64,000 nucleotides of DNA from Nemertoderma westbladi (taxonomy: Eukaryota; Animalia; Xenacoelomorpha), in NCBI GenBank assembly GCA_032718475.1, contig JAUCBJ010008261.1:1-64000 (forward strand). The letters are read 5' to 3'. Of the stretch, positions 22,458 to 60,219 are shown piece after piece. The translations under genes were made by a program, and so were the position numbers. The notes beneath the pieces were generated by a model. The model ran no database searches and had not been told where the DNA came from. It was given only the letters and a program-made list of their open reading frames with translations. Position 1 is the stretch's first letter. Each line of letters starts with the position of its first letter.

Positions 22458-22458
22458 A

Positions 22459-27705: not shown

Positions 27706-28030
27706 CTGGGCGAGTGTGAATAAAACTCACGATTAATCGCCATCGTACGATCAATTCTAATTTGTACTATTTTTACGATTAATCGTTGCAAAGATTATTC
27801 GTATGTTTGATGTGAATAAAATCGCACGTTGTCAAGATTGATCGTAGAAATTTGACGATTAATCGTGAAAAAGATTAATCATATTGCTATTGTGAATAAA
27901 ACGTATCTTCACTACGATTAATCGGGATGATTCTAAATTAGGAAAACACTAGTAAAACAGTAAAACACTAGGAAAACATAGGAAGAGTACTGTAAAACAC
28001 ACGGAAAACAGTGAAAATATTGATCAGCAG

Positions 28031-29183
28031 TGTAAAAGCTTTTGCGTAATTAACCGGTTATTTTCCCGTAAAGTACTCTGTAGTTGGTTTACCAGGCATA
28101 AAAAGGCCGTGTCCTTACTGTATTGGTGTTTTAGAGGACATAAAAGTCATTTCTTCTGTATGTGTACTTTAGAGGACATAATCCGCAATTTCGTGACGCA
28201 ATAAGCTGGATACTCTTGAAAACAGTGTCGCTACCATGACGACGGCTAACAGCTGATATTGCCACGTCGAACATTTCTTTGTTCTTTGTTCTCTCTTTGT
28301 ACGGTCGACCAATCAGAGCGTTTTTTGTCTCTGTGTTGGAGGTTGGATACAGAAACTCAGGAATTCAGTGTTATGTTTTTGCCCAGAGCCTAAGAACACC
28401 GGCTTTTGGCACCTCCGTGTTTCAGTCTTTAGCTTAACATTAGTAGGCTTAATTATAGAACGTATATCTGTTATCAATGCAATTCATACCTCACTCTAAT
28501 AATCATTTATACCTTAACATTACTGCTTTTGCTGTTGGTTATTCATTATATTTGTTGATGAAATATTATATCGGAATACTGATCAATAGTCAGACACCCC
28601 AATCTTCTTGATATACTAAAGGTTAGAGAGACCGGTTACATATAAACGATTGCGACCTATGTTAAGTGGTTTGAAGTGAATCTAATGCTATTTCATAGGC
28701 CCTACATAAATTGTATGTTGCTCTCTTTATACGTGACTAAATTTAGTGAAGGTCGGCAGATTAGTGTGCAGTATTGTGCAGCATTGTGTATGATTGTAAC
28801 TGATAACAAAGCATCTCCTAAAGAATGCGCCATATACGTGAATCTATAGCCATTTCGTTGTGTCTAGTTTAAGTCATAACTCTGTTTACATATTTAGAGC
28901 GCCACGTCCTAAAGGAACTGTTAATATTTCCCGAAAGTGAATAATATTTGTCAGAGATTATATATTACGATCAGTCGAATAGTACAGTAGGCTTACACCA
29001 TCAATCAAGTTAAGCTTCCGAATTCAGTCTCCCGGGTATATCCAGCGGGTGAATGATTGCGCATAGACTGGCTTCGGCTAATGTAGTGTATCAAATACTC
29101 GTCATAGGCTAAAGACTATCTATCATCTAAAAGACATCCTAATTTGGCAGGTTAAACTGTCAAAGGTCTTAAAAGCGCAAACA
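28031..29183 (+). repeat. 5' LTR (1153 bp)
   Basis: Direct repeat of 47883-49037; about 16 differences by manual comparison. Confidence 0.95.
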
Positions 29184-29461
29184 ATAACAGATATTGCTTC
29201 TAGATTGCGGTGTAAGCAATCTAGTCGAAAGTACCGGTCGACCGGTAACCAGTAGGCCTGACTGCCTGATCATCCGGACCGGTACCTACAGCAGTACAGG
29301 TACAGCAGTATTATTCGATTGTGAAATTGTATACCGGTAGGCTGTTTAAGAGATTAGGGACTGTACACCCCTTGTTTCTTTTGGAGCTTACTTATTTCTG
29401 TCAGTTTTATTTATTTGTAGGCCAGTATTGAGCAGAAGGCGTGTAAGCCTGCTCAGATTGT

Positions 29462-30035: not shown

Positions 30036-31375
30036 TATTATTCAGAGTTTATGCGATTATTCGCAACATTCATATCCCCAAGTTTATTCCTACAGTAATT
30101 GTGTTTGTTATACATACCGTTATAGTTAAACTAACCTCGGTACTACATCAGGGCTGCTCGGCGTAGGTAAAGACTGGAGATTTTATGCTTTGGTCACTCC
30201 GGCAGATACCGTGGTTCTTTTAACTGTTCAAGTATTTTTAACTACTGATTATTTGTTGTACAAGTACTTGTACCTAATTTAGGGTTTAGTGTACAGTACT
30301 TTCCGAAGGTGATTAGTGTGTGGGCAGTATATTTGTGTTGTAAAGTGGTTAATAGGCACGTTGGTTCTGGTAGACCGCGGTAATTAATCTCTGGGTAGGA
30401 ACACTCCGTGATACATAACGTAGTACCTATAGCGATACGGCTATAGGTCGTCAGACGGTGGTATTTTCCTATCTGGACAACGCAGTATATTTACTACTAC
30501 TTATTATTTTCAAATACCGTAGTAACCTGTCCGTTGTAATAACCAGATATTCTAACCCTTTGTTAGGCTGGTTAGTAGACTTCTTGTAAAATTACCCTAA
30601 AAATTCGTATTTGTGTATTTGTAATTAAATTTTTGTGTTTATTTAGAGATTGTAATCTCAACCCAAATTGTACGTAATTTGTAGTATTAAGTAACTTAGG
30701 TAAATTAGAATTATTTGTTTTAGTGTCTAACAAGTAGCACTCCACTGAGAGCTCACAGCTTATGTGTGGTGACTCCCCCAGAAATAATAACATTTATTTC
30801 AAACATTGACAAAACCCATTAAACGGGTATATATATATTATAAATCAACTCAAACGATTTATAAATAGTAGGCCTGCCATACAACAATTAGGTCTCAATA
30901 TCAGTTGGACTACTGCTTAAATAACGGTAATAAAGTAAGTTAAAGTAACCAAGTAACCCTTAAAATTCAGAAATTCAATTATTTAAATAATTGATATACC
31001 GGTATTTACAATAGGCCTATTATCTTTATTTCTATAAATTTAGGCTGAAATTATACCGGTATTCTGTAATTAATTCTAGTCTGTAATTATACTTATATAT
31101 ATACATTATAAGTGTAAGCTGTATACCGGTATTCACGATAGGCCTATTATATATATAAATTTAGGCTGAAATCATACCGGTATTCTGTAATTAATTCTAG
31201 TTACTAATAATACTTATATATACTATAAGCATACCGGTATTCTAATATTATATATATATCACGCTACACTGAGTAGCAGTATCGGTAATTAATTACTAGG
31301 CTAGCAGTTAATGCTGAATTACTAGACTTGCTTAGACTGTAATATAGCAGTAGGCATTCAACTGTGCAAACAAAC

Positions 31376-34300
31376 ATGTCTGATACTAAGCAGAACCTGT
31401 CAGACAGTTTATTAGATGTAACTATCTGCGACTCAGATAAGGGTGTAGAACCGTCTACACCTAAGTTCAGTTCACCTCCCACTGTGAGGAAGGTCATCCC
31501 TCCAGTAGTAATATCAGAACCTAGGCTGGTCCAACATCGTAGGTCTATCATAGGCACTCGAGCTCAGGTCAAGCAGGACCAAGAAGCAGCGGAACAGCAA
31601 CAACCCGCGAGCCAAGAACTTATTTCTCAGCGGCCCGACAGCTCCAGTAGTGAGGATACTGTAGAGCTGACACCCGAGCGCGGAGCAAAGATGACGGATG
31701 CGGTTTATTCGGATCCCCTTCTCATCCTGCCTGCAGCCGTACTCACTAGGATATTGATCGCGGTGGAAGAACACCAGATCGATTGGGAGTGAAGTCAGCG
31801 ATCAACTAAAGATAGTTATGCGGGATACACAAGGGAAGAACTGAAGTCTATTGTCGAGTCGCAATGGAACTTCCCCGGACCCGGACTCCCGTTTGATTTA
31901 TCAGAAGCTGCCTGGGAAGACATACACCGGATGGGAGTAACCAAGGAAACCATCGATCCAGCTGTGTGGAAGAGGTCCGCAGCCGGATACGCACAGGGAT
32001 TCTTAAGCTCTATGGAGCGACTAAAAGAACAACTGTTTCAACAACCACAAGGACCTCAAGAGCAGGGACAACTGCTTTATCAAGTTAGAGAAAGAATTCT
32101 GCGAATCAGGCTAATCTTATCGGCCTTTGAAGAGGCTTCTAAAAGAAGACAAGACACGTCGTTGCAAGTTGCTGTAAAGACTTGGTTTCAGCGGGTGAGT
32201 CTCCAGGTTCAAGGAACAGCTCAGTGGAAAGCTCAGCTGGAGGAGCGCTCAACCCATGGAGAATCAACAGACGCTACTTTTTCCCAAGTGGAAAGTGAAG
32301 CGACGGCAGAGAAACCGCATAAGAGGGATGCCATTGACATCTATCTGTCAGACTATCAGCGTTTTTTAGGAGATGAAGAGTTGAGGAGAAGGTTAGATGG
32401 ACTTAGCCCTAATAGTGAAGGAGCCCAGCGTATGTTGGACGCAATTGATGTGGATAGGATAGCTGCGAACCAAGCTAAATTTGATGAAAGTATCCGCATC
32501 GCTAAGGTTCAAGAAGAACAAGTAAAGAAAAAACGTATAGAAGATAGAAAGACAGCGGCAGTGGCAGCAGCAGTGGCAGAGGCAGAAGCGGAAAGAAAAG
32601 CGGCAGCAGCAGTGGCAGCGGCAGAAGCAGAAAGAAAAGCGGCAGTGGCAGTGGCAGTGGCAGAGGCCGAAGCGGAAAGGAAAGCGGCATCGGCAGTGGC
32701 AGAGGCCGAAGCGGAAAGAAAAGCGGCACTGGCAACAGCAGAGGCAGTGGCAGAAGCAGAACAGAGGGCATCTGCAGAGGCAACCCAACTAGAGTTGGAA
32801 AATCTTCAAGAGAGGCAAGACAACTTCAATAAACAGTTAACAGCTAGTAATATGCAGATGATGAGTCGATCTACTCCCAAAAGACAGGGGTATACATCAT
32901 CTGAGGAAGGCGATACTACCGATCCTGAAGGCGGAGGAAATCAATCTCGCCTAAGCAGACGTAAAAGAATGTCCCACCGTCAGAAATTGCCTGAATTGCC
33001 TCCAGCTGTTAGAAGGCAACTAAATAACACCAACTTAGGTAGTACAGAACCCACAGACCAAATAATTACAATAGAAAGACTCCCTACTATAGTAGATGAG
33101 CCTGAAATAATTAGGCCTGTTCTTGAAATCACCCCTTCGGTGATAGAGACACCTGTGCTCCCTGAACCTACCTCTAAATTCCCTCTGCACAGCACTAAGC
33201 TACCTGTGCCCAGTAGAACAGCCCATGAGACAGTTCAGGTCCTGGACTCCGAGCGAAATATTCATGATTTGTCGCCCGTTGTCCCTCGTCCGCCCGCTAC
33301 AACGTTGACGAATCCCGCTTCGGCGGTCAAATGGGTGGATGAGAGACGACGGGGGATGGATCTCCTGCTCGGACAGATGCAGGAGACCGTTCAGCAATTC
33401 AAGGGCACAGTAAGGGAAAGTAGGTTAGAGTTGCAAGAAGTGCAGCAAAGTATCGCGCTAGAACGCGATAAATTAGTAAATACACAAAGGGGTATACCAC
33501 CACCCCCTGTAACAATGTGTCAACCTGTTAGGTCTGAAGTATCTCATGCGTAAGGTGTGGAGCCTACACGCATCTATACTGCTAGCGAAGTAGAAACTCC
33601 TATAGTGAACCCTATTAAGGGTAATTATAGACCTGTTGATAATGACATTCCCTATAGACCTGATCATAATCCGAGAAATTTATATACCGATAACTCGATA
33701 TTAAATAACACGATGGCCCAAGAAAGTTTTACGCGTCAAATGGCTAGAACCGAAGCCCGGCAAGCGGTAAAGGTGGGAGAGATAGTCAAGTTCAATGGAG
33801 ATGAGATGAAATGGTTACCTTTTAATGAATATTATAAAGATAACATACAGAACTCTGTACTATCTAATGGAGAGAAACTTAGATTCCTCATCGAGTGCTT
33901 GGAAGGATCTCCCAAGTTAATGGCGTTAAAGTTTATTGGACATCCAGATGGATTAAGACAAGTTTGGGATACACTAAACATCAGGTATGGTAATAGGAAT
34001 AACATAGCTAAATATTTGTATGCAAAATTAGTAGCGCCCCGAAAGTTCATTAGCAGCGGGATAATGGAGTTTTCCGATGAGATTCAAGAGATCTGTAGAC
34101 AATTAGATTGGTTAGGTAAGTCTCATGAATATCAGAGTTCTATGGTTATTGGAGCCGTGGCTTCTACTTTACCGAAGGGTGGAGTAGGTACACGCTGGGA
34201 TAAGAAAGTGTTATATATGATGGAACAACAACGACGAGACCCTACCATGGCTGATCTCATGTTATTCCTAGATGGAGAAGTGAAATTACAGCTCCTAAAA

Positions 34301-37300
34301 CTGTCCAGAGAGAAGACACCGGAAAACAAGGTAAGTGAAAAACCCGTCTCTAGGAGAAAGGTAACACCAGTGTGTTATACAGACGACGGCGAAAGCCAGA
34401 CTTCTCAAGGAGAGGATAGCGGGAAAGACACTGACAGATCTTATTATGTCAATAAAATGCCTAAAGATCAGGTAAGTAAATTCAAGTCTCGAACCAATGA
34501 CAGGAGAGAACAGGTAAGAAAAACTCCTCCTACGTCTCCTAAGAGAATTCAGGTGAGAAAGCCCGAAGAAAAAACAAGTGTACACAATGTTACTCAAAGT
34601 AAGGTAAGTAACATCAAACCGAAATGTGCGCTATGTGACGGGACCCATCGCTTGAATATGTGTGATGAATTCCTAAAGAAATCATTAACTGAGAGACGGG
34701 AAGTCATGTGGGATAAGCGGTTGTGTTATAATTGCCTCAGACAAGGACACCAACGACGAACCTGTTACTCCGACACAAGGTGTGCAAAGTGCGGTGCGAA
34801 ACATCATATCTTGTTGCACACTGAATTCGAGCGAAATAGTCCGAGTCAGGTAAGTGATTCTGAACTACATGTCCAATTCAGTGATGTGAACGACACTGAT
34901 CAATCTGAGATGGAAGGATTCTATACGGACGAGTTCTCCGACGAAAACGAATCCTGTTACATGATAAATACCGCAGTGTATCGAGCACTCACTTATGAAA
35001 AAGATACAGAAAGTGACCTCACTCTAACTACTTCTGATCGACAACCATTTTGGAAAGCGCCAACTTCCAATGTAGGGATTAGAGAATTTCCTGTGGTACA
35101 GGTAAGGGTCCACGGACCAAAAAGGAGTTATGTAGTGAACGCCCTCCTTGACTCCGGTAGTACAGGAACATTCATCGACAAAGAGCTAGCCGAAGACATA
35201 TTTGCTGGACAAACCAAGTTCCGAACTAAGCTAAACATGTCAGGAATTATGCAGGTTTGGAAATCTACAGTAACAGCGGATTATTATGTAGGTGCGTTGT
35301 CCACCCCCCAGGACGAACTAGGAGAACATAGCATAAGGTCAGTGAAAATGGTGGCAATAAAGAACTTCGCTACCACTCAAGTGGAACCTTATAACTGGGA
35401 CGAGGACGATTTCACCCAGCAGATGGAAATACCTAGATTCGACACCGATTACCCTGGAGTGCAAATACTCATCGGTCAAAACGCGCATGAAGCGCTCGAG
35501 ACATTGGAGAAACGGCCCGCTCAACCGCAACCATTACAACCTTATGCGGTAAGAACTAGAGTGGGTTGGTACTCTACTGGCCCTTCCCGTAGAACTCTCA
35601 TGGAAAGATTACCGAAAGATCAGGTATATCAAGTGCGAGAATGGGAAGTTGAGAACAGTGAGTTAGACGATCCAACTGAGGGAACTCCATACTCCTCAGA
35701 CAACGACGATATACATCAACTCTTCGATGAGGAGAATGCCATCGATCTCCTTAAGGAAAGCGAGACTTGGCAAAATCAAGTGAACTTATGTCAACTCCTT
35801 CTCCCATCAGAGCGAGACGACTATAACGACGAGCTTAATGACGTCATTGAACGTTATAATGCCAAGACTCGGGATGAACACGCCGTAAGATTCTTTACTC
35901 AAGAGGTTGTAGAGCCCAACTCCTACGATAAGGCCCTATCGGTGGAGGAAGAAAGAGCCAAGCAGATCCAAGCGACAACTACTCGTTTTCTTAAAGATCA
36001 AGGTAGGTATGAGATCGGACTTCCTTTCCGAAAGCGAGAACCAAAGTTCATTAACAACAGACCTTTGGCGGAGAAAAGAATTGCTCAACTACATCGACGC
36101 CTTACGGCAAATTCTTCAGCTAAAGAAATGTATCAAACGCAGTTGAAGAAGTTTATTAGCAAGGGATATGCGGAGCTAGTACCGGAAGAAACACCTATAA
36201 CTGAGAGAACGTATTATTTAACTCACCATTACGTTCCCAAACCCGGTAAACCCCATGAAGTACGAGTGGTGTTTGACGGTTCCGCCCTTTATATGGGCCA
36301 ATCTCTTAATTCTGAATTGTTACCCGGACCCAACTTACTCCAATCCTTGTTGGGAATACTATTAAGATTAAGACAATATTCCATTGCTTTCGCCTCAGAT
36401 ATAGAAGGCATGTTCTTGCAAGTCAAAGCGCTGGATAGGGATCGAGATAGCCTACGATTTTTGTGGTGGCCTGAAGGAGACCTCAACAAGAAACCGGTGG
36501 AGTACTGGATGACCATCCAAGCCTTTGGGATAATCTCGAGCCCTTCAAACGCCTGTTCCGTGGTGCGCACCATTGCGGATGACAACCGAGACGCCTTCTC
36601 TAAAGAGGTGATCGACAATATCAAACGTACGTATTCATATCAACTCCATGTGTTTGGAGACGCCAGCGATATGGGAATAGGTATAGTAGCCTACCTAAGG
36701 GTGGAAACTCCGGACGGAATCAAAGTCGCCTTGGTTACCTCTAAGGCATTGATAAACAACAAGTTGAAAGTTCCTCGAGCGGAGTTAAAATCGGCTCTAT
36801 ACGCTACAGCCATCGGCCGGAATGTAACAGAACAGATCGACTATCCCCTGGAGAAAACTGTCTATTGGACCGACGCTTTACTCGTGTTGGAGTATATAAC
36901 CAATGAAGTCTGTCAGTTCAGCGTCATCGTTACCAACAGAGTAGCTATTATACTCAGTCGCACGACAATGGATCAATGGAGACATTGCCCCGGAACGATT
37001 AATCCAGCGGACATCGCTTCCAGGGGAGCAACTCCACAAGAACTGGTAGATACTCCAGACTGGTTAGGTGGACCCGACTTCCTCTACAAAGAAGAAGAAG
37101 AATGGCCTCCTCATCTTACTACAGCAGAGATTAGACAGGCCAAGGGAGCGGAGAAAGTCAAACCTAAAACTCAGGCGAGTAAATCGAAGTTATTCAAACC
37201 CACAGTAGATCTGTCTGTACTACATACTTCCGGAGAACACGCTTTGGATCAGAAACCCACAGCCACAAATAAACCCGTTGTGGAAATCCGTGATAAGGAT

Positions 37301-37390
37301 TGGAAATCTGGCATACCAGACGTCTCGCAAGGACTCTCACCTCTTCTGCAGAGCGATACATCACTACAGTTCCTGGAATCGGCTCTGTAA
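31376..37390 (+). pseudogene. BEL/Pao Gag-Pol polyprotein (N-terminal extension, Gag, protease, partial RT, RNase H)
   Basis: Three ORF-track ORFs share one frame, separated only by TGA 31790 and TAA 33551. Motifs: KFNGDEMKWLPF...EKLRFL (DUF1759-like); CALC..H..C, CYNCLRQGHQRRTC, CAKCGAKHHILLH; ALLDSGS; VRVVFDGS, SDIEGMFLQV, FGIISSP; LHVFGDAS, PRAEL, YWTD, NPADIASRG. Confidence 0.92.
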
Positions 37391-39002
37391 GGCCGTTACA
37401 TATTTAAAGAGATGTTTTCACCATCACTACTCTGGGATGAAAACAAAGGGTGATACCGCTCCAATCACAACAGTGCAGGTCCATGTTATTAAAGATCTTC
37501 CCAAATATAAGATACCCGACAGGTTTCTGAAGGAGAAGATCAGTTATCAGGAGCATGAAGAAACCAACAAACAGATGCTGAGACTCTTGCAATGCTATGA
37601 AGATTCCGATAAGTATTTCCTGTTGTTGAGAAATCCACAGATGCGCTTAAGGGATCGTTTCTCTAGCACAATGATAGATGGGTTGATACGTGTTGGAGGA
37701 AGGTTAACGGATGCCCCATTATCCTTTGATACTAAGTTCCCCATACTCATTAGAAATCTTGAAATACAAGTCAAGATGATTGTAGATGTTCACAGCAAAC
37801 TTTATCATGCTGGTAGAGAACGAGTTCTTAGCGAAATTCGAACTCGCTATTATTTTTATAAACCCCGTAGAGCTCTGAACCAAGTTCTTAGGAACTGTAT
37901 ACCCTGTAGGAAAGCATTCAGTAGGCCTTTAACACAGCGAGAGGCAGAATTACCTAGGGAACGAGTAAGCTTTTATGAACCACCCTTTACTAATACCGGT
38001 GTGGATTTATTTGGCCCTATTGAAGTATATCGTGCTAGGACTATAGTCAAGAGATGGTGTGTAATCTTTGTTTGTATGACTTGTAGAGCCATCCATCTCG
38101 ATATGGTGAACGATTTATCTACCAACAGCTTTCTATTAAGCTTACGACGACAGATCGCTCGCTTTGGCACTAGTAACACGATGAGATCTGATAAGGGAAC
38201 AAACTTCATTGGTGCCAACAATGAAATCAAAGCTTACGTCAAAAATTGGAACCAAAGACAGGTGGACGACCAACTACGAGTAACAGCGTCTAGTTGGACC
38301 TTCAACGCCGCCGACGCCCCTTGGTGGGGAGGAAGTTGGGAGAGATTAATAAGAAGTGTGAAGACAGCATTTCATTTTATAGTGCCTTGCCGCGCTTATC
38401 TCACCGACGAACTTTTGCGGACGTTAATGGAAGAAATCGCCGCCTATCTCAACGAGAGACCGCTTATGCCAGTCTCATCGAGTCCCGATTCCCTGGAAGC
38501 GCTAACACCCGCGCACTTCCTACTGAAGAAACCTGTAGCCATGCTCCCACAATCGGAAATCACAGACGGAGACGAATACTGCCGACAAACTTGGCAACTC
38601 ATGCAGTTGTTATCCCGTCGTTTCGCTGACCATTTCGAAAAACATTATCTGCCCACGCTACAACTTCGAACTAAGTGGTTTGCGCAGCAAGAAAACGTCA
38701 GCGCTGGAGACATGGTTCTTATTGTGGATGTAGATCTTCCACGTAAGCGGTGGCAGACAGGTCGTATAATCGAGACCCACATCTCGGATGACGGTTTGGT
38801 GCGATCGGTAGAACTCGTCGTCATGCGACGTAACTTCAAGAAACCGGGAATTGTCTTCGAGACACAGCAGCTCAATCGCCCAGTTGGTCGCTTATGTTTA
38901 CTGGAAAGAGACAGAGAACTCTCCGGAAACTATGGGAGACAAGATACTCTTCCCACGACCACCTCCCTAATCCAACAAACATCTAGGGACTCCCCAACTT
39001 AA
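37350..39002 (+). pseudogene. BEL/Pao integrase (frameshifted from the upstream Pol)
   Basis: YSSWNRL, RVGGRL, HSKLYHAG...CIPC (HHCC), GVDLFGP, SDKGTNF, GGSWERL, NERPL, LTPAHFL. The frame change near 37350 is probably a post-insertion indel. Confidence 0.92.
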
Positions 39003-40322
39003 CAACGGCTGGAGTGGGTGTGTGACCATATTATTTTATATTTGTATTTGTTTTATTCTTTTATATTTATGTATGTATTATTATGTAATTTTATTTTAAT
39101 CGTTTTATTTAATTTTATTTAGTAACATGTTATTTTAGCGATTGTTTAGTAGATTAGTGCAATATATTCGCATTTATTACGTAATTACTTGTATTATATA
39201 TTTAGTGCGACGGCGAGAAATAATTCTTTTTCTCCTTCCTTACTGTCCGTATTACATTATAAATACGTGACTACGGTAAGATGAAATGTCCGTACTTATT
39301 AAAGTACAATAAAGCCACTACTATATTCAAGTATTATTGGTAGGCAGAGTATTAGGAATGCAAAGTTCAGATCCTCGTGTCTCGGCTAAACCAAGCTCTG
39401 GGTAGACCTTGGAAACGACTTGCCTCTTCACACTGACATTGCTTCGTGCGATATTGCTCTCATACCGTATATTAAATAATACATATAGTAGCGTGATGTC
39501 CCTTTAACAGTAGCGTATAACGCACAATAAATCTGTTAAACCCTTTGACCATCTGCAATTCTAGTCGATTAAGATATCGCGGCACCCACCGATACACTTG
39601 AAAGACAAAATTCTAGAATCAGTGGTTAACGTCCCCAGACAAGTTCTGGAATAAACTGGTGCCCATCCTAAATATTAATTATTAATATTTACAAAATCTG
39701 TCAAATTTTAGATCCTTTAAAATTCTAGTCCATTAACCTTCTAATTACCATGGGGTCGCTACCGACCCCAGAACACATTTATAATTTCTATAGATGCGTA
39801 CTAAATTATTTCCGGAAACAAAATGATCCGTGGTAAAAATTCTACCAGTGTTTTCTATAGCTGGTAGTGAAAAAAATCTAAATTGCTGTCCCAACACACT
39901 ATTTATTAGCAATTATAAAAAATGCAGCGTTATGTACCATGGGGTCGCTAGCGACCCCAACCATATACGTAGACGGCGAGACAGAACACAGGTGGAACGC
40001 TGGTAGGGGCATGGTAGATTATAAGCCACATGCAGATTACATGTCTGTATATGCTTGTACGTGTGCTTCTTAGGTTACAATTACATGAACAAGTGACTCC
40101 TCCCGTCCGCATACAGTAAGCCATAATCTGAGGAAATCTTCTCATTGGATGATGTACAGTATATTATCTCCGGCACAAACACGAGACAAATTTTCAGATT
40201 GCCCTAGCAACTCACATTAGCTATGTTATATTTATGTATATCTAACGAACAAGTGACTCCTCCCGTCCGCATACAGTAAGCCATAATCTGAGGAAATGTA
40301 GATTATAGGTCACCAAATTATT

Positions 40323-40797
40323 GGTCGGTAAATTGGTACCGGCCATGTGCCGGGGGTAAAGAAATTAGTTGTGTCAGTGGCGCCTCAGCCTACCCTCGTG
40401 TAGAAGCCAAGAGCTGAAGAGAGAGGTGGCTTTCATGGTTACCTCCGCTCCGGTTCAGTACCTACCTTGTTGTAGGCCTACTCACCGATCACTTTCTGAC
40501 TTTTTTTATTGGCTTGGGCGCTTCGCGCCGTTCGCTTCGCTCACCAACCCAATTAGGATTACCTGATTACTGTTAGATCTAGGTTAGGGTTGTAATGCAA
40601 TCCTAACCAAGGGACTAACCCTACCCCCTTCGGGAAGTCCATTCAAACAGTAAAAAAACGGGCAATTTGAATCCGACGCTAAACTCCATGTATGCCCGGT
40701 GGTACCGGACCGGTGGTAGGTAGGCCTACAAAAGATATCAGGCAGGATATAGGCCCTAGTAGGATACTGTACAGCCGTAACGGTACCGTTACCGACC
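40323..40797. mobile_element. 475-bp MITE in the piggyBac 5' region
   Basis: TIR GGTCGGTAA..GGTACCG / CGGTACCGTTACCGACC; candidate TSD ATTATT at 40317-40322 and 40798-40803. Confidence 0.65.
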
Positions 40798-40817
40798 ATT
40801 ATTATATATCTCAAAAC

Positions 40818-42506
40818 ATGTCTATCTGGTATACTGCACAGCAAGCCCTAGATATCATACTCAATTATGAAAGCGAGAGTGATGATGAAAATGAGGAGGA
40901 AATCGGCGATGTGAGCGACCAAGAGGAGGAGGATGTCGTTCTGGAACAGGATGGTTCTTCCGAGAGTGACGAAGTTGATGAACCGGAGGAGGCCACTCCT
41001 GCTGCTACAGCTGCTGCTCCAGCTGCTCAACTTACTTCGAAGGACGGCAAGGTCTGGAGCATCACCTCTGGGCTGGATCCACGAGGTAGACCTGCGCGTG
41101 CCAACATCCTTCGAGAAGCTGCTGGGCCAACTCGTCGTGTTAGGGAGCAGGCAGATACCCCTGCAGGTGCATTTTCCTGCTTTTTCACGAATGAGATTTT
41201 AAACATTATCATACAGTGTACGAACGAGGAGGGGAGCCGGGTTTACCCGGAGACTTGGAGTCCTATTGACCGGGTTGAGTTGCAAGCCTACCTGGGACTC
41301 ATACTATTGGCAGGAGTTTATCGAGCGAGATCGGAACCAGTGATACATCTCTGGAACCAGGAAAGTGGCCGCCCGGTCTTCGGCAATTGCATGGGAAGGA
41401 ACCGCTTTCAAGTCTTGACTCGTGTCCTCCGATTCGACTCACGCGCGGACCGCGAAGAACGGAGACAGCGGGACAAGATGGCGCCGATTTGCGTACTCCA
41501 TGACAAGTTAGCTGCCCTCTGCCGCAACAACTACAAAGTTGGCGCACAAGTTTGCGTGGACGAACAGCTGGTAGTGTACAGAGGCCGCTGCCCGTTCAAA
41601 GTTTATATTCCTTCAAAACCTGGGAAGTATGGCATGAAGGTTTGGGCGTGCTGCGATGTGGACACTGCGTACCTCACCAACTTCGAGCTGTATACGGGTA
41701 TGACTGGACGCGGTCCTGAAGTTGGACAAGCATTCAGAGTGGTCTTGCAGATGACCGAGCATCTTTCAGGAGCTGGACGAGGATGCACAATGGACAACTT
41801 CTTCACCTCATACGATCTGGCGCAGTCAATGCTGTATCGTCAGCTTACTTTGTGTGGCACCGTGAGGAAGAATCGCCGATTTCTGCCTCCTGCTATGCTA
41901 GACGTCCGTTCTCGCGCTGTTCAGTCCAGCAAGTTCGCCTTCCACAACGGCATGACACTAGTTTCATACGTGCCCAAGAAGAAAAAGAACGTGGTTCTTT
42001 TATCTACGCAGCACCACGATGCCGAAGTTCACGAGGATCGCCAAGACAAGAAACCGGAGATAATTCTCTACTACAATCGCACCAAGGGCGCCGTGGACAC
42101 GCTGGACAAGCTTCTGCGCACGTACTCGTGTCAACGCAAGTGCCGACGTTGGCCGCAGTTGTTCTTCGGGAATTTGGTCGACATTGCTGCTTACAACTCC
42201 TTCATTATCTTCTTATTTTGTTTTCCCGAGTTCATGGAAGGAAAATCCCATCGAAGACGCCTCTACCTGGAGAAGCTGGCATTCGAGCTGATGGCCGGGA
42301 AGATGATGCGGGACCGCCAGGAGGCGCAACCTGGTGCGCAGGCTGTGCCGCCATTGGCTGCAGGAAATGCCCAAAGACCGAGGAAGCGTGCCCGTTGCGA
42401 ATCCTGCCCTCGAGATCAGGATCGGAAGACCACCGAGCGATGCAGCGCTTATGGCAAGGCCATTTGTAAGGATCACCTCGGAGTGGTCTGTGTACACGGA
42501 TGCTAA
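40818..42506 (+). CDS. piggyBac transposase (PGBD4-like), open frame of ~562 aa
   Basis: Acidic N-terminus; VCVDEQ, PSKPGKYG, TMDNFFT, GTVRKNR, YNRTKGAVDTLD (DDD triad); C-terminal Cys-rich domain. The ORF-track start at 40692 lies inside the MITE, so ATG 40818 is preferred. Confidence 0.92.
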   Translation: MSIWYTAQQALDIILNYESESDDENEEEIGDVSDQEEEDVVLEQDGSSESDEVDEPEEATPAATAAAPAAQLTSKDGKVWSITSGLDPRGRPARANILREAAGPTRRVREQADTPAGAFSCFFTNEILNIIIQCTNEEGSRVYPETWSPIDRVELQAYLGLILLAGVYRARSEPVIHLWNQESGRPVFGNCMGRNRFQVLTRVLRFDSRADREERRQRDKMAPICVLHDKLAALCRNNYKVGAQVCVDEQLVVYRGRCPFKVYIPSKPGKYGMKVWACCDVDTAYLTNFELYTGMTGRGPEVGQAFRVVLQMTEHLSGAGRGCTMDNFFTSYDLAQSMLYRQLTLCGTVRKNRRFLPPAMLDVRSRAVQSSKFAFHNGMTLVSYVPKKKKNVVLLSTQHHDAEVHEDRQDKKPEIILYYNRTKGAVDTLDKLLRTYSCQRKCRRWPQLFFGNLVDIAAYNSFIIFLFCFPEFMEGKSHRRRLYLEKLAFELMAGKMMRDRQEAQPGAQAVPPLAAGNAQRPRKRARCESCPRDQDRKTTERCSAYGKAICKDHLGVVCVHGC

Positions 42507-43510
42507 CTGTTTTGGACACTTTACCCCGGTGTTGCAGTAAAAACTATTTTATTTTGTTGACCCAAAAATGGAATATAGCAGGTGGGGTCGCTAGCGACCC
42601 CATGGTACTTAACGTAACTTTTTTTCACGGTAATTAGAAGGTTAAGGTATCGTAGCACTTACCGATACTCTTAAAAGGACAAAATTCCTCGAACCAAGGA
42701 TCCCAGTCCCCAGACACGTTCTGGAATAAAATTGTGTCTATTTAACATTAAATAATAAAATTTAAGGGAATAAATTTAAATTCAGATATTTCAATGAATT
42801 TAATAAATTGTCATTTTATACAATTTATAACATTCCCAAAATTCCATTAATTAATAGATCATGGGAGCGGAGATTCACTCTATTAAGTGTATTTGTATGC
42901 GAGAATCTCCAATGTATAGTCAATAGCCGATAAAATTCATAGAATCATGTATAAAGGGGATATTGACCATTAAAGAATTACTATTAAATAGCATCCCAGA
43001 TCTGTATGCATGAGAATTACCCTAATTCTACCGCTAGCTTTTCATAATGTCACCATAGCAACAACCACGCTAGAATTAGAAGTGAGTTAAAAGAACAATA
43101 GAAGGCATGCCCCATTGAATAGCATAGGGAATAAATAGCGCACTGCTAGTATCCAAGGATACATAATAAATACAGTGACATTCTGGAAGGTACTGACTAA
43201 CGGACAAATGGCCCGAATGTGTGCAGTTTGTTGCAGTTGTGTTGAATTTGTGCGTTTGTAGGTGAATGTTACTACTAAGGTGTGTTTACAGTAGCGAGTC
43301 GCAATTGTGAAAGTAACCCTAACTCTCCAAGAAGAACCTGCAGTACATCTAAGCCTTTGGGACGGACAGTGGAGTGACTTGTGCCGGTTATCGTTGTCGT
43401 TGTGTGGCTACATCGTTGGCGAAAGCACAGCGACGACGGTACATCGGCGCTGAGGATCTTACACTGTCCGGGGGCAAAAGAGGGGTAGGCAGCGACGCCC
43501 GCTAGCCTAA

Positions 43511-43545
43511 TATATAAACTCATTATAATATTGATAAACTCATAG
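43511..43545 (+). promoter_or_regulatory. Candidate TATA/Inr core promoter for the extra ORF
   Basis: TATATAAA at 43511-43518; TCA with its A at 43542, 31 nt downstream; ATG at 43551. The AT-rich context makes chance possible. Confidence 0.3.
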
Positions 43546-43550
43546 CAGAT

Positions 43551-46500
43551 ATGACTGAGTTGATAGAAGATGATCTTGGCATCAGGGAGCGATATACTCT
43601 ACCTTTACAAGCGTTTGTCGATAGCTTGATACGCGGCGACGCTGGTCCAACTACTACGGTGGATGATGGTCGTTATATTGAACCGCCAATGTCCCCGGAG
43701 CAACTTACGCGTGAATTGGATTATAGAAAGTTCACTGCTCGCTATACGCATCGTAATGGCACGTATATGGACTTCTTAACTACCGGCCATCCTATCGATT
43801 TACACGATACGGACGATGTGGATACCGAAAGGGAAATGGTTTTATTTAAATACCATACCCAACGGAATCGGAACGATAAGCCAAGAATAGAACACGAGAA
43901 CTCTATTCGAAACAGACTCGAAAGAGAAGACGTTGAAGAGCCGGATAAACGCAACGACTTCAACGATTATCTGGAATTCTTGAGAGAAACATACCTCAAT
44001 ATTGCCAGTCAACAAAATCTCGTAACTTGATATCCTCAAGGTATACATCATGATCCTATGATAGAACTCAAACGACTCTATTTCACTATGATGTATCTTA
44101 CCGCCGATCGACCGCTACCTGTTGTCCCAGATAGCTTCGAACAGATGGAGGAATATTGTAAAACTGGAGAACGATCACCCGCGTTTCCTCTGCAGGACGT
44201 GCGTCTTTGGTATTACTGCGACGAATGCCCTAGACCCAATCAGCAAACGGAAAGACATAAACATCCGCGGAGACGTTGCGCTAAACACAGTTTTACACGA
44301 TATACTTATGGGAGTTTCGAGCGAAACCTTTTCGACGTGTCACCTGCGGTCGCTCGACTCAAGCGATCCTTGAACAAACCGATGATCAGAGTTCCGGAAT
44401 ACTCGGTCAGACCTCCGCATTCCTCAGTTAGACCTCAAACTCTTGACCCTAATAGTATCACGGATCCTCCCGAACTGTACTCACTGTTCAAAGATCTAGT
44501 GTTACCCGAACAGTTGATCGGTGGCACTCTGGTAGTAGGCTCATGAGACATTCGCCAACCCTACCTAGCTGGATTGGGACGTGGTCATCTAATATCGCCG
44601 TTTAACCCATACAACCGTCCCGGCTTCACCTCTATCCAACCCGTTACGGAAGTCGAAGAGAGCGTCGTACGAAACGCATTAGACGCTATTCGGCAGAAAA
44701 TCGGAAAGGGAACGTACGATTGTTTGGAGAAGCGTAAATTGCAGCAACAAGTCCAAGTGGTGAAGGAATTAGCTTTACCCCAGTTCGATAGAGAAATACA
44801 AAATCTCGAAGAGGACATCGAACGTGGACGAACCTACTCTTTACAAGAGTTTCTAGATGAGCGTCTACAACAACAAGCGGAGGAGAATCAGCTCGAGGAG
44901 AGACATATAGAACTGGATGAGAGAGAAGAAGCGGCTTTAGCTCAACCCGAAGCGCAAATCCTTATGACGGATCTCTACACTAAAACCATTCTTCATCCCT
45001 CGATGGTTCCCCATTTCGGAGACAAACTTTTTGCGACGGCACAACCCCAACCGGTTGATATCAACCTAAGATCTCGAGATCTTATCGCCGACGCTCCTAT
45101 GTTGCAGCGTCCGCCCATCGAATCCGCTCGTGTCGATGGTATACTCGTTGAACCTCCGGACAATAGAGCAGATCTTGTCCGTCGCATGGTACACGATGTA
45201 AACATACGCGCTAGACCTTTACCGGACTCGTTTTACGGGATCAAAGATCACCCTTATTACGTCAATCTAAAACAATATTACATGGTAAAACCGGAAGATC
45301 ATACACATAGTCTGAAGTTTCTACCGCTAATAAATCCTCTCGATCTTGTCGAACTCGAACAACTGCAGAAACATCTGGATCAGTTAGTTAAAGTAAACTC
45401 ATTTCGAAAACCATATAATGTTTCCAGAATAGAGAAAGAAACAATACCTCCGTATAATCTTGATGGATTCATCAAAACTCGTTTAGTGCACTGGAATCTT
45501 GATGTGTTATTCGAGGAGGAAAGAATACAACGATATGGAGATGTGGAAACATATACCACACAATATTTAAAGTATAAAGACCTGCCTAATGCTAGCGAAT
45601 GCGCTACCTTGTGGCATCCTGTGGGAATGACACTCGAAAACGCCACAAAAGAGTGGAACGAAACTCTTAATGTTATCGAGATGTATGGAGTTGTCACTTA
45701 CGATAACGAAGGTAGCGTTCCGGTTGGAGAACTTGGAACTACGCGGATGATACATATACGAGGACTCGCTGGTTCTACCCACGTATTTACTCGAGCGTGT
45801 TCCGACGTTATTGATTATTCTTTTGAAACTCTTACTGAGACACAAAAGAAACTCCGACATGGACAATTTGAACTCGCGCAGCGTTACGTCACCGACACCG
45901 AGCGCAAACCGGCCATGGGTATCGATGGATCGATGTTACCCCAACCCGTGCTCGAGATGTTGTTTAACGAAAGAATCCTTAAAATCGGCTCAGCTGTTTA
46001 TGGAGACCTACAGAACGACTTTCGGAATATGGAGAACATTCCATACCCCTTCGTTGATACTCAGCTGATTGCTCCTTGGGCAGAAGGCCGAGGTTTCTTC
46101 CGCACTATGTATGCCAATACACCCAGCGGAATTACTAAAGTACAACGAACCTCCATCGGACATCTTGCCTTTCAAGAATACGGATGGAATTTCAAGGTTG
46201 GAAATCCTATAAATTACCAACAAGTATACGGAGATCATTATTCTCGTTTATACTTTGATGGACCATTGACCGCACCTGGCGCCGTGTATAGCTTTATGAG
46301 TGTTCCACTTCGTCCCTCCTTAGCTATATACACGATCTTTGAAAACGCAGCACTTGCCGGTTGGCTAGCCGATGTGTGCAGTCGTACCATACGCGCCCAT
46401 CCCTTAATACTTGGAACCAAACTCGCCAAGTTAGATGAACACAATAAATTCATCCGCTTCGAATGTTTCAGGCGCTTTCTGACTCCGTTCCGTAACGTTG

Positions 46501-47804
46501 ATAGTCAGTTCAAGGACCGCGCTCTGACCAAGGTCAGCCTAAGAGACTCGGCTGCGGAGAAGCTAAACAGCGCGGGATTTGCCCTCTTTCAGGACGTTTG
46601 TATACAAAACTTACATTCATCTGTTATACAAAGACCCCGAATACCCACGGGTTATTCTGTCGTGGAAGTTCAGACAGTGGGTCCTCTTGCGGAGACAGCC
46701 GCACCTACGTCAGCTATGCAATTGGAAGACGAACCAATATGCTTAGAAGCTGAAGCGATTCAGCCTACAGCGCCCCGGAGCAGCGATAACGACTACGTCT
46801 TAGAGTGGTATCAAGGTCCACAATGTCTCACCGCATACGATTATCGACACGCTAACTATGTTTCTCGAAAACGTTGTCGATTATGCGCATCGAGAGACCA
46901 TTTCACCCCTATGGACTCAGATGTACCCTGCTCCTATTTCCACGAACAACCGATGATGGAGATATATTGTGCGTATTGCAGACTTAATAACTCTCATATT
47001 TTTGCAGTCTGCCCCCAATTTATGACTCAATGCCACCACTGTCAACTTAAAGGACATGCCAGTTATAATTGCCCCTTTAATCACGATTTAGAGAGCGTAG
47101 ATGAAATGATTACCCTGCGCTACATCCGAGCTTGGGAAGCGAACGCGGATTTACATTGTGAGTCCCGTCATCGATACTACCCTGGACGCTCTTACGAGGG
47201 AGTTTACGCGTTCCATCCTTATTTATTCGCGTCTGTGGAACAAAAAACACGCACACCGAGTTACGAACTAATGAAGCGTGTTGGTGAGTGTATTTCCACC
47301 AAATTCGTTCGAAAATACCTTAGGAACGTCAATCCTAACGATATTACTTCATACCATTTGATCAATTATATCCGTCAAGACCCTGAGTATGGCGATTTAT
47401 TTATCAACTCGCACCCTGAGTTACAGGAAGTATCTCGACGGCCCTACGAATATCGAGCCCGAGAACGCGAGCTGGAAAGAACTATTAAACCAAGGAAGTT
47501 TCTCACCACTCACGGTCCGCCTACCGCCGTTGTCCAGACGACCCGTCAAGGACCAGTAGGAGCTGCTGTCCTAAGACGCGCCCTAAAGACCGTTAGACCT
47601 CGCTCCACTGAAGTTGATATCGATCAACCAGGTACCTCGACCGGCGGATACACCGATCGCAATCCGAAACCTTCTGATGCAATTGTATTGCACCCTTCAC
47701 CCAGGAGTTACAGCCCTCCTAGCAAAGTGGCTCGCCCTAAAGAGAAAAGGACTCTTGCTAGCTTCAAAAAACTGCGTAAACGCCGTCCACGTAAGAAAGA
47801 CTAA
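43551..47804 (+). pseudogene. BEL extra ORF (~1417 codons, two in-frame TGA): coiled coil + DEDDy-like 3'-5' exonuclease + Cys/His knuckles + basic tail
   Basis: Three ORF-track ORFs share one frame with stop-free linkers. ExoI VVTYDNEG (45702-45710), LPQPVLEMLFNERILKIGSAVYGD (ExoII), FVDTQ, SIGHLAFQEYG, PLRPSLAIYTIFE (ExoIII-like). Knuckles at 46875-47075. Ends KKLRKRRPRKKD. Confidence 0.75.
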
Positions 47805-47882
47805 CTGTTTAGAGTATTTTTATATTTTAGAAACTGTGATTTGTTATATTTTATAGACTTAAATCCCATTTTCTGGGAGCGG

Positions 47883-49037
47883 TGTAAATCTTTTGCGTAA
47901 TTAGCCGGTTATTTTCCCGTAAAGTACTCTGTGGTTGGTTTACCAGGCATAAAAAGGCCGTGTCCTTACTGTACTGGTGTTTTAGAGGACATAAAAGCCA
48001 TTTCTTGTGTATTTGTACTTTAGAGGACATAATCCGCAATTTCGTGACGCAATAAGCTAGATACTCTTGAAAACAGTGTCGCTACCATGACGACGGCTAA
48101 CAGCTGATATTGCCACGTCGAACATTTCTTTGTTCTTTGTTCTCTCTTTGTACGGTCGACCAATCAGAGCGTTTTTTGTCTCTGTGTTGGAGGTTGGATA
48201 CAGAAACTCAGGAATTCAGTGTTATGTTTTTGCTCAGAGCCTAAGAACACCGGCTTTTGGCACCTCCGTGTTTCAGTCTTTAGCTTAACATTAGTAGGCT
48301 TAATTATAGAACGTATATCTGTTATCAATGCAATTCATACCTCACTTAATAATCATTTATACCTTAACATTACTGCTTTTGCTGTTGGTTATTCATTATA
48401 TTTGTTGATGAAATATTATATCGGAATACTGATCAATATTCAGACACCCCAATCTTCTTGATATACTAAAGGTTAGAGAGACTGGTTACATATAAACGAT
48501 TGCGACCTATGTTAAGTGGTTTGAAGTGAATCTAATGCTATTTCATAGGCCCGACATAAATTGTATGTTGCTCTCTTTATACGTGACTAAATTTAGTGAA
48601 GGTCGGCAGATTAGTGTGCAGTATTGTGCAGCATTGTGTATGATTGTAACTGATAACAAAGCATCTCCTAAAGAATGCGCCATATACGTGAATCTATAGC
48701 CATTTCGTTGTGTCTAGTTTAAGTCATAACTCTGTTTACATATTTAGAGCGCCACGTCCTAAAGGAACTGTTAATATTTCCCGAAAGTGAATAATATTTG
48801 TCAGAGATTATATATTACGATCAGTCGAATAGTACAGTAGGCTTACACCAGCAATCAAGTTAAGCTTCCGAATTCAGTCTCCCGGGTATATCCAGCGGGT
48901 GAATGATTGCGCATAGACTGGCTTCGGCTAATGTAGTGTATCAAATACTCGTCATAGGCTAAAGACTATCTATCATCTAAAAGACATCCTAATTTGGCAG
49001 GTTAAACTGTCAAAGGTCTTAAGAAAAAGCGCAAACA
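47883..49037 (+). repeat. 3' LTR
   Basis: TGTAAATC...GCGCAAACA followed by the AGCAG TSD. Confidence 0.95.
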
Positions 49038-50884
49038 AGCAGGGAATTTAACACATGTACTTCTTTGAATTGACAATCCTAAATGTACTCCTCGCATAGC
49101 ACCCCTTAAGTAATCACCGTAAAACATAGGGAAAACACTATAAAAACACTATAAACCTTCCGGAAAACAGTGAAAAAATTGATCAGCATTAAATTTTACC
49201 TATATGCTGCAAAAAAATAAATTGAAAGAGTCTAATACTGCCCAGAAAGCTTGTTGCCAGGCAACCAAAGAACTGTAACCACTCAGCATACGGTGCAGTA
49301 TCAGTACAGCAGTACTATCCTTGTTTTACCGGTCAGTTGGTAGAGGCGCAAAGTACCAGTATTGCTGTATTCTGGTAGGCCTATTACCTGATTGCAGATT
49401 ACGGTATTAGTGCTGTAGTGCAGTAGTGTAATGCTGTAATGTAATGTAATGCTGTAATGTCCCATGGCTATGGCACTATCTCTGTAACCAGGCTGCCAGG
49501 CTGTCTTAATACTGTAATGCTTACCGGTACTACTCAGCTCTAAATATAGAAATATTTACAGCTTTAAACCCTAACAATACTGCAATATCTGAATACTGAA
49601 ATACACTTACTGCACTACAGCACTAATACTGTAATCTGTAGTCAGGTAATAGGCCTACCGCTACCAGAATACAGCAATACTGGTACTTTGCGCCTCTTCC
49701 GACTGACCGGTAAAACAAGGATAGTACTGCTGTACTGATACTGCACCGTATGCTGATTGGTTACAGCTCTTTGGTTGCCTGGCAACAAGCTTTCTGGGCA
49801 GTATTAGACTCTTTCAATTGATTTTTTTGCAGCATATAGGTAAAATTTAATGCTGATCAATTTTTTCACTGTTTTCCGGAAGGTTTATAGTGTTTTTATA
49901 GTGCTTTCCCTATGTTTTACGGTGATTACTTAAGGGGTGCTATGCGAGGAGTACATTTAGGATTGTCAATTCAGAGAAGTACATGTGTTAAATTTCCTGC
50001 TGATCAATATTTTCACTGTTTTCCCGGTGTTTTACAGTACTTTTCTTATGTTTTCCTAGTGTTTTACCGTTTTACTAGTGTTTTCCTAATTTAGAACTAT
50101 CCGATTAATCGTAAATAATTAAAGATCAATCGTAGGTTGAAATTACGCCGTGTCCGTGACAACAACACTACCGTTAATATTCTTGAGCATATTATTGTTA
50201 AACGTGTAATTGAAAAACACACATTTGCATTGTATAGTCCCTACTGTATCCCCCTTTATTGGAGAACGTTTCAGTACTTCCGCACGGGCATGCATACGAC
50301 GCAAAGATTTTATTTGTACACCCTTATAATTCCGGATACCCGTAGGCATAGTGTGACCATTTTGGTTGATTTTTTTTATCAAAATGGTGACCACTTACGA
50401 AATATGAATGAATTTTAACATTTCATTTTTCGAACATGTTAAATTCGTTTTCAAACAATCGAAAGTTTTGTGAGCGCTATTGTTTGTTATTATGGTAAAG
50501 TGTTTTTCATTGTGGCTTAGTTAAACAATGTTTCTGAATGATATAAAAGACAGAAAATACATAAAAACATTTCAAATATATGTTTCGGTTTCTGCGTTTT
50601 CGGCGTTTTTAAAACACTAGCTAACAGTACCTTACAAAAATTTACTAGCAACCATAATAAATAACTAACAAAAAAAAATTAAAAATTAAAAAATTGTTGT
50701 TCGATTACACAACTTCATTAAATTCATAGTTAACTTGTTCGAAATTGGAACATAAGATAAAAATCTACAGACAGTACTAAGATGAACACAATATAATAAC
50801 AAAAAAATTGTCTTATGTTCTAAAATGTTCTAGAGCAACGATGATCACACAAGGCTTACTAGTATCGCATGAGTGAATGACCAA

Positions 50885-58976: not shown

Positions 58977-60219
58977 TGGCGACTCGCCCTCGCGCCAGCA
59001 GATGATAGTGGCAATGGTGGAATTGGTCTTTTGATGAATCCAACTGCACATGCAGCATTGGACAAAATAGACCAAATCTCTAACCGCATCATCCGTTGCC
59101 ACTTCTCATGTTCTGGAAGACTGGCTAAGAAGTTTCCTAAGGTGGTTCTGATTGTGTGCTACTCTCCAACTAGTGTTGCCCCTGTAGATGAGGTATAAAA
59201 TTTCTACCACAATCTACAAGCAGCTACTGATGGAGTAGATCAGCATGCATTCTTAGCATTCCTGGGAAACTTTAATGCAAGTCTACATCAATCACCTACA
59301 TCGCCCTGGGTCTATAGCAATAGTGTTAACCGAAATTCTGTCCATCTTCAGGATTTTATCTCTGGAAATGGATTGTTTTCGGCTGGAACCCAGTTCAAGA
59401 AGCGAACTGGAAAGCTATGGACTCATAGTGGACCCAGTGGTTACAAGTCCCAGATAGACCATATTCTGTTTCGTAGGAAATACAGGAGCTCTATACAAGA
59501 CTGTAATGCATTTACACTTCGACCCTTCTCTAGTGATCACCGCCTTATTGTGGCCAAGGTAAGACTTAGTCTGCGTGCCAGCAGAACAACGAAATCTGCC
59601 TTGCCGCGGCATGACTGGTCCTCTCTGTTGCAACAGCCAAGTGTGAGATCCAGCTTCACACTACAGCTGAGCAACAGGTATGAGGTTCTTGCCTCTGAGG
59701 CGGCAGATCACTGTGAGGGCTATACTGCCTTCACAGAAGCAGTTAAGTTAGCAGCTGCGGAAACAGTTCCTGTATACCCTCGAAACAGGAAAAGGGCCCC
59801 CTGGACTGACAACAAAATTCAGAAGTGCCGAAATGACCTTCATAAGGCGCAGAAAGAGTCCAGACTCAAACAGACTACAGCGGCCAAGAATGCAGTTAAG
59901 GCTGCATCTAGGTCCCTGAACAGGCAGTACTCTGTTAATCTACAGGAGCTAATAAACCCACAGGTTGATGCCATCAATGATGCTGACGACAGCAGGCAAT
60001 CATCCCAGGCATGGAAATCGATCAATTTGCTTACTGGGCGGATAAGCCAACCAACCACCAAGGTTAAGGCTGAATCACCAGCCGATCGCCTCAATGGTTG
60101 GAAAGCCCACTTTGAAAAGCTCCTCAATAATGACAGGGTATTGAATGATAACTTTATAGAAGTAAAAGTGTCTGAGTCTGTACTCCCAGATATTCCCATT
60201 GGCGATATCTCCTTTGCAG
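58977..60219 (+). pseudogene. RTE LINE endonuclease region, left arm of a fold-back palindrome
   Basis: CYSPT, QIDHIL, SDHRL motifs; inverted copy of 60232-61473. Confidence 0.9.

Follow-up and report, generated by a model that had tools for sequence, protein, structure and literature searches.

The BEL/Pao-type element and its third open reading frame

We analysed a stretch of 64,000 nucleotides from Nemertoderma westbladi (assembly GCA_032718475.1, contig JAUCBJ010008261.1, positions 1 to 64,000 of the forward strand; hereafter, the window), in which a BEL/Pao-type long terminal repeat (LTR) retrotransposon carries a large third open reading frame (ORF) that is not env. This gene, which we call ORF3, appears from its sequence to be a conserved accessory gene whose product couples an exonuclease domain of RNase D kinship with a module of three zinc knuckles. 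The host element is complete from LTR to LTR and this copy of it is defective. Its length, excluding a nested piggyBac transposon, is 18.1 kb, about twice the 4.2-10 kb stated for the BEL/Pao family (Belpaoviridae; PMC8742986), and much of the excess is ORF3. The features are as follows.

28026..28030, no strand: left target-site duplication AGCAG, flanking the 5' LTR
28031..29183, +: 5' LTR, TG...CA, 1,153 bp
31376..33553, +: N-terminal part of gag, long and of low complexity, in frame with the next ORF; stops interrupt it in this copy
33554..37390, +: gag (DUF1759, three knuckles), protease, reverse transcriptase and Pao RNase H (Peptidase_A17)
37209..39002, +: integrase (Integrase_H2C2, DUF5641), in a frame that differs from the rest of pol
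39733..42645, +: nested piggyBac with TTAA at both ends and a transposase ORF at 40683-42506; outside the family
43551..47804, +: ORF3, non-env, 1,417 codons and a stop, with in-frame TGAs at codons 160 and 332
44217..44282, +: N-terminal CxxC..H..C motif of ORF3 (residues 223-244), putative metal binder; no Pfam match
45654..46370, +: exonuclease-like domain of ORF3, predicted DEDDy fold, with D718 and E720 (ExoI), D819 (ExoII), Y927 and E931 (ExoIII)
46875..47225, +: zinc module of ORF3, three Cys/His knuckles and then a conserved E..A...R / G-x-aromatic-x-F segment
47766..47801, +: basic C-terminal tail of ORF3 (KKLRKRRPRKKD), nuclear-signal-like by eye
47875..47882, +: short purine-rich tract just before the 3' LTR
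47883..49037, +: 3' LTR, TG...CA, 1,155 bp
49038..49042, no strand: right target-site duplication AGCAG

Pfam matches above cut-off occur in BEL/Pao order (DUF1759, Peptidase_A17, Integrase_H2C2, DUF5641), with gag followed by protease, reverse transcriptase, RNase H and integrase and with BEL-specific domains among them. The two LTRs are identical at 1,138 of 1,151 aligned bases (98.9%, with 6 gap columns) and the same 5-bp target-site duplication stands at both ends of the element. An earlier note on this DNA, made from the letters alone, had assigned the host to BEL/Pao, and the LTR pair, the target duplication and the domain order all agree with it. The note had also placed ORF3 between the integrase and the 3' LTR; the position is right, but the 2.9-kb piggyBac in between went unmentioned. 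The note likewise says nothing of the element's length, the lost reverse-transcriptase core, the relatives with the ORF3 architecture or the resemblance to trypanosome RNase D.

The N-terminal part of gag (31376..33553) gave no convincing Pfam family. The reverse transcriptase of this copy is without the catalytic YxDD region near 36630, and one sister contig has 109 unaligned letters at that site, so the loss fits a copy-specific event. Because gag and ORF3 contain stops, the integrase is out of frame and the reverse transcriptase has no YxDD, this copy is dead. No canonical TGG of a primer-binding site follows the 5' LTR, a statement with no tRNA comparison behind it, and an Rfam scan of 27500-50500 gave no match. 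The element sits within a palindromic repeat resembling a miniature inverted-repeat transposable element (MITE); the idea that a MITE cuts the 3' LTR was wrong, as it is the element itself that inserted into the MITE-like repeat.

Some further observations concern the element around its genes. Ahead of gag runs a leader of 2.2 kb in which stretches of 289 and 121 bp are duplicated in tandem (29463-30046 and 30995-31222). In the spacer between integrase and ORF3, a 76% direct repeat (39569-39691 and 42642-42764) flanks the piggyBac insertion. The piggyBac transposase frame is open (607 aa, 40683-42506; DDE_Tnp_1_7, E value (E) 1.7e-78), its terminal repeats match, and the transposon looks young and low-copy.

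Architecture of ORF3

The frame of ORF3 is far more open than expected by chance. The two other sense frames of 43551-47804 hold 65 and 85 stops, and in none of 1,000 base shuffles did any of the six frames have fewer than 48. The long non-env sense frame broken only by two TGAs, described in the earlier note, is therefore present, and all of the sequence motifs quoted there were found in the translation. ORF3 is intronless and its stop codon lies 79 bp from the 3' LTR. There is no transmembrane helix, as had been claimed (the top hydropathy over 19 residues is 1.19), which argues that ORF3 is not env, and no Pfam family, fusogens included, rose above cut-off on its 1,417 residues. Judged by eye, with no predictor, ORF3 appears to have a coiled coil and a nuclear signal and to be without a signal peptide.

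All three of the Cys/His knuckles noted earlier exist, but the canonical spacing CX2CX4HX4C is found in knuckle 3 only, and knuckle 1 has the non-canonical CX2CX4HX9C. Against Pfam zf-CCHC_3 the knuckles reach E 4.9e-4 and 20.4 bits, below the 27-bit cut-off, and a profile of the zinc module (alignment A5) gave weak matches to nucleocapsid, Air2, Lin28 and the structure entry 7c45. We also noticed that the CpG observed/expected ratio of ORF3 (43551-47801) is 1.28, compared with 0.69-0.94 in gag, pol and integrase, which may reflect a different origin.

ORF3 belongs to the repeat family and appears constrained

Four of seven listed public sequencing runs, which carry two organism labels, were mapped to 28000-47999, and every bin of ORF3 was covered in all four. 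In run X1, with 143,641 contigs mapped, the summed depth was 1e5-1e6 on the element and about 100 on the piggyBac; summed contig depth is not copy number, yet the contrast points to a large repeat family with a private piggyBac insertion. Differences between sister copies were taken from the best-supported 40 of 4,083, a non-random subset, and 14 of these are in ORF3. The second TGA contains one of the 14, and most depth there in each of the four runs deviates from the window, so that this stop looks specific to the present copy; the first TGA (codon 160) has no row among the 40. Of the remaining 13 differences in ORF3, 11 are synonymous, when a fraction of 0.34 is expected for random transitions (p = 2.4e-4 on these best-supported rows), and the gag-pol differences in the same subset are synonymous in 10 of 18 cases. 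ORF3 is thus present in sister copies and is not a one-off capture, and the synonymous bias suggests that it is a constrained part of the BEL/Pao family. Some contigs in two runs each skip 43919-46724 or 44912-47670; deletion derivatives without the nuclease domain exist in the family.

Identity of the exonuclease-like domain

Sequence searches of Pfam, PHROGs and the PDB returned nothing for the nuclease domain, and the evidence for its identity comes from remote comparisons. Among Atlas features, PF01612 clusters stood at 0.92 (recognition 2,856) and ten of the ten best family matches agreed, the shared features numbering 146-158, under the 170 typical of same-family matches. The RNase D models of NCBIfam matched at E 0.0029 and 0.019, scoring far below their cut-offs. 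With 24 proteobacterial RNase D domains as the profile, the ORF3 domain scored 15.8 bits (best of 2,000 shuffles, 3.8) and ORF3 ranked top among the 604 six-frame segments of the window. An unguided profile was built from the window domain and its two remote relatives, P0002 and P0003, described in the next section. In hhalign it matched 18 bacterial DEDDy rows with a probability of 92.8% (E 4e-7, 116 columns), and against all 64 bacterial rows it scored 36.9, with 40 column shuffles reaching at most 14.0. Run blind over 301 genomes, the profile found matches at E <= 1 in 55; within the 61 genomes with mapped PF01612 loci it made 10 matches, nine of them inside PF01612 domains, and had none in 51 of the 61. 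Its best overall match, in genome G208, had an E of 1e-4. The window domain went undetected by a 10-row PolA profile and by a 20-row profile of one stand-alone group, and a profile comparison with the window and P0002 on both sides was discarded as circular. The sequence signal is concentrated on about 45 residues around ExoII.

In a 21-row alignment, D718, E720, D819 and Y927 fall on the catalytic columns and the P-L-x6-Y-x3 spacing is kept. The D-x-E of ExoI, which in DEDDy enzymes ends the first strand, is represented by D718 and E720, aligning with an invariant D and a near-invariant E; D819 provides the aspartate of ExoII and has the strongest sequence signal around it. ExoIII reads Y-x3-E (E931) in place of Y-x3-D, in the window and in P0002 likewise, which bears out the earlier suspicion that the last acidic residue is E rather than D; no paper on a D-to-E change at ExoIII was found in the literature. 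The register of ExoI varied with the rows chosen, as about 40 inserted residues lie between it and ExoII.

A guided model, from a 41-row alignment of which 38 rows are bacterial DEDDy domains, reached a predicted local distance difference test score (pLDDT) of 60.8, with core blocks at 77-91 and the insertion disordered. In a fold search the model gave Z scores of 12.9 for apPol, 12.1 for RNase D (root-mean-square deviation (rmsd) 3.0, 159 aligned), 11.5 for Nibbler, 11.5 for Exd1, 11.4 for WRN, 10.5 for human Rrp6, 10.3 for the trypanosome RNase D TbRND and 9.7 for Egalitarian (rank 21); since bacterial DEDDy rows guided the model, which is thus no independent proof, the scores speak for compatibility with the fold and do not choose a subfamily. 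Foldseek against the PDB gave no match at E <= 0.001, its top rows being DEDD-type nucleases nevertheless.

Taken together, the RNase D profile, the NCBIfam matches, hhalign, the blind genome search and the aligned Exo motifs support the DEDDy-type exonuclease homology that had been proposed. The homology is remote, and the domain is best described as a probable divergent DEDDy-fold variant (D-E-D-E-y) and not as a canonical member. The special tie to the piRNA-linked WRN/EXD1/Egalitarian/Nibbler group, which had been read from the motif order, was not supported: the best sequence match is RNase D, and the guided-model scores of RNase D, Nibbler, Exd1, WRN, Rrp6 and TbRND lie within about 2 Z units.

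Remote relatives

A full scan of 1.84 billion representative proteins at E <= 0.001 gave two matches, P0002 (1.1e-6) and P0003 (2.1e-4), each an unnamed singleton cluster with about 30% identity to ORF3 over the matched parts. Among these representatives there was no close cellular homologue of ORF3. Both relatives have an exonuclease-like N-terminal part and a triple Cys/His module (P0003 has two zinc modules), and in the conserved segment after the module E, A, R, G and F are invariant among ORF3, P0002 and P0003. At the five catalytic columns P0002 has the residues of the ORF3 domain (D, E, D, Y and E). Its match to PF01612 in Pfam has an E of 0.2, and its top Atlas cluster is PF01612 plus zf-CCHC in Euglenozoa (0.86), which is a lead only. 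P0003 is an intronless ORF (L001:124-2075) on a 3,685-bp contig that carries no pol, and there is a weak hint that it may also be retroelement-borne. About 40 bp beyond its ORF come a purine tract and TGT, resembling the end of ORF3 before its LTR.

Other searches added no members to this set. Word-index protein searches returned no relatives, one of them having been limited to 1,135-3,240 aa, outside the length range of the known relatives; viral contigs gave none for ORF3, P0002 or the zinc profile, and metagenome contigs none for ORF3. In tblastn against phages the window had no match, and two weak matches of P0002 were checked and are not exonucleases.

Possible function of ORF3

ORF3 bears on a wider question, the role of non-env third genes in animal LTR retrotransposons. 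Few transposon-encoded suppressors that act against small-RNA silencing in animals are known. Our tentative proposal, which we put forward as possible and well short of probable, is that ORF3 may be an RNA 3'-end trimming enzyme that blunts small-RNA silencing of the BEL/Pao element. By the example of trypanosome RNase D, the zinc knuckles would hold a single-stranded RNA some nucleotides upstream of its 3' end, and the end would be fed into a two-metal site of D718, E720, D819 and E931. The protein would be nuclear, trans-acting and dispensable in cis, given the basic tail, the separate ORF and the copies that are without the nuclease part. That host small RNAs or their precursors would be the substrates is the least certain part of the proposal.

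Several observations weigh against this proposal. The last Asp of ExoIII is replaced by Glu; the single-sequence fold of the domain failed (pLDDT 30.6) and the guided model leans on its bacterial rows. The 13 differences in ORF3 are a non-random set in which one falls just upstream of the nuclease domain and none inside it. P0003 has lost the Glu of ExoI and all of ExoIII and retains its two zinc modules, so the family can persist without catalysis. About 165 residues separate nuclease and knuckles, where TbRND has 28, and neither sequence nor fold comparison showed a link to piRNA factors. In bdelloid rotifers, by the available text of PMC5408684, DEDDy ORF3s have no unambiguous correlation with copy number and small RNAs cover the DEDDy ORFs themselves.

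A close rival, which on its own we consider somewhat unlikely, is that the fold is kept with little or no catalysis, ORF3 being an RNA-binding adaptor or decoy, like Egalitarian or Exd1, that caps or carries element RNA or sequesters factors of silencing or RNA surveillance. The E in place of the last D in the window and P0002 and the decayed active site and doubled zinc module of P0003 are in its favour, as is the finding, in the available text of a preprint, that Egalitarian with all five catalytic residues mutated keeps RNA binding and function and that Egalitarian transports I-factor RNA (bioRxiv 10.1101/2025.08.03.668247). Against it, at 30% identity the fourth site is still acidic and the Tyr and the other three acidic residues are retained, which suggests a maintained metal site, and the fold search shows no preference for Egalitarian. 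A nuclease might alternatively serve the element itself by trimming the 3' end of its genomic RNA, its tRNA primer or mis-extended cDNA ends, as a proofreading-like aid for an 18-kb genome. We regard such self-processing as unlikely: most BEL/Pao elements replicate without such an enzyme, the basic tail and separate ORF would be a poor fit to cytoplasmic particles, and ORF3 itself accounts for much of the extra length, even though the doubled genome size (relative to PMC8742986), the similarity of the ORF3 knuckles to nucleocapsid fingers and the lack of a canonical TGG primer site all suit it. The 40-kb Terminons also carry DEDDy ORFs, for which 3'-end processing has been proposed in the available text of PMC6431247.

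It is very improbable that ORF3 is a passenger, a captured host gene useless to the element. The relatives could be host genes, and the contig of P0003 shows no pol, but the synonymous bias between copies, the 79 bp from stop to LTR, the absence of introns, the presence of ORF3 in all four mapped runs under two organism labels and the want of a close cellular homologue among the 1.84 billion representatives speak otherwise. To a chance motif match in a protein of another fold we give hardly any weight. The blank Pfam, PHROGs and PDB searches, the confinement of significance mostly to the residues around ExoII and the failed unguided fold would be expected of it; several partly independent tests concur, however, and ExoI and ExoIII are in register with the right spacing.

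Whichever function it serves, the BEL/Pao ORF3 family is a high-copy case, apparently constrained, in a lineage for which the literature found reports no exonuclease ORF, and it offers a candidate enzyme, an altered active-site residue common to a distant relative and a zinc module hitherto undescribed. The surprise is limited because the domain type has a rotifer precedent from 2017. Conceivably, unrelated LTR retrotransposon lineages repeatedly build a protein that unites a nuclease with zinc knuckles, matching in a single chain the Rrp6/Air-type machinery that acts on RNA 3' ends in the host, to control RNA surveillance or small-RNA silencing; the ORF3 of this BEL/Pao family, given its D-E-D-E-y site and its new zinc module, would then be an independent origin and the founder of a new family of animal transposon counter-defence. 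This generalisation is speculative and we think it improbable.

Other features of the window

Two further loci lie outside the element. On the - strand, 19295-22468 is an unbroken ORF of 1,057 aa with a weak RVT_1 match (E 1.3e-5), an FADD motif and, at the C-terminus, a Cys/His pattern together with one of a restriction-like endonuclease; it looks like a CRE-type non-LTR element. Its insertion site has arrays of a 28-bp satellite on either side (18575-19088 and 22459-24727), possibly through satellite targeting. At 58977-61473, a long inverted duplication (arms of 1,056 nt, 95%) with two opposed copies of an APE-endonuclease ORF is probably the fold-back 5' end of a long interspersed nuclear element.

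Comparison with known systems

The DEDDy extra ORFs of bdelloid rotifer retroelements, named in the earlier note as a precedent, are confirmed by the available text of Rodriguez et al. 2017 (PMC5408684), where the Juno and Vesta LTR elements and the Athena/Terminon elements carry DEDDy ORF3s in which DEDD has become DEED and for which no function is demonstrated; the available parts of two reviews summarise them again (PMC6431247, PMC6338049). By these descriptions, both they and the present ORF3 are non-env ORFs after pol with an RNase D-like DEDDy exonuclease, an altered acidic motif and no transmembrane segment. The host here is BEL/Pao-type, whereas theirs are Juno/Vesta or Penelope-like, and the altered site is D-E-D-E with Tyr here and, by the published text, DEED there. 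With its 1,417 aa, three-knuckle module and basic tail, ORF3 stands apart from the bdelloid proteins, for which the available description notes a Cys-His-Cys motif in two families only and no coiled coil (PMC5408684).

Third ORFs between pol and the 3' LTR are also present, by the available text, in env-bearing BEL/Pao elements such as Roo and the Chuviridae-glycoprotein BEL of mosquitoes (PMC13524379, PMC8742986). ORF3 differs from these in having nucleic-acid-processing domains instead of a transmembrane helix or fusogen match. The word 'exonuclease' does not occur in the main text of a BEL/Pao survey (PMC3118150), whose 7,861 element sequences lie outside that text in a supplement and could hold such an ORF unannotated, nor in the main text of a 2026 env survey (PMC13524379), and the available text of PMC7968707 has nothing on retroelements. 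No BEL/Pao element with an exonuclease ORF was found in the literature covered, with most subscription papers, Repbase and Dfam outside that coverage.

With Nibbler/Mut-7, Exd1, Egalitarian, EXD2 and WRN, ORF3 has the fold in common (Z 9.7-11.5 on the guided model), and it has a K-x-G before ExoII as in the stand-alone WRN-type bacterial rows, but it has no sequence match to any of them. We know of no knuckle module in these proteins.

The nearest worked-out parallel for ORF3 is trypanosome RNase D, in a likeness of architecture that need not mean shared ancestry of the fusion. TbRND, by its available description, is a mitochondrial host enzyme of 390 aa that has the canonical DEDD, four CCHC fingers and a 28-residue linker (PMC7797062; PDB 7c42, 7c45), and its fingers hold nucleotides 5-9 from the RNA 3' end and raise cleavage (PMC7797062). 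Both proteins have CCHC knuckles arrayed C-terminal to a DEDDy exonuclease, in TbRND in place of HRDC, and the guided model aligns with TbRND at Z 10.3 (rmsd 3.8, 177 aligned). ORF3 differs in its E931, its three knuckles, its long linker (about 165 residues) and 700 extra N-terminal residues. In essence, ORF3 resembles the bdelloid ORF3s and TbRND in design, yet it lacks defining features of each.

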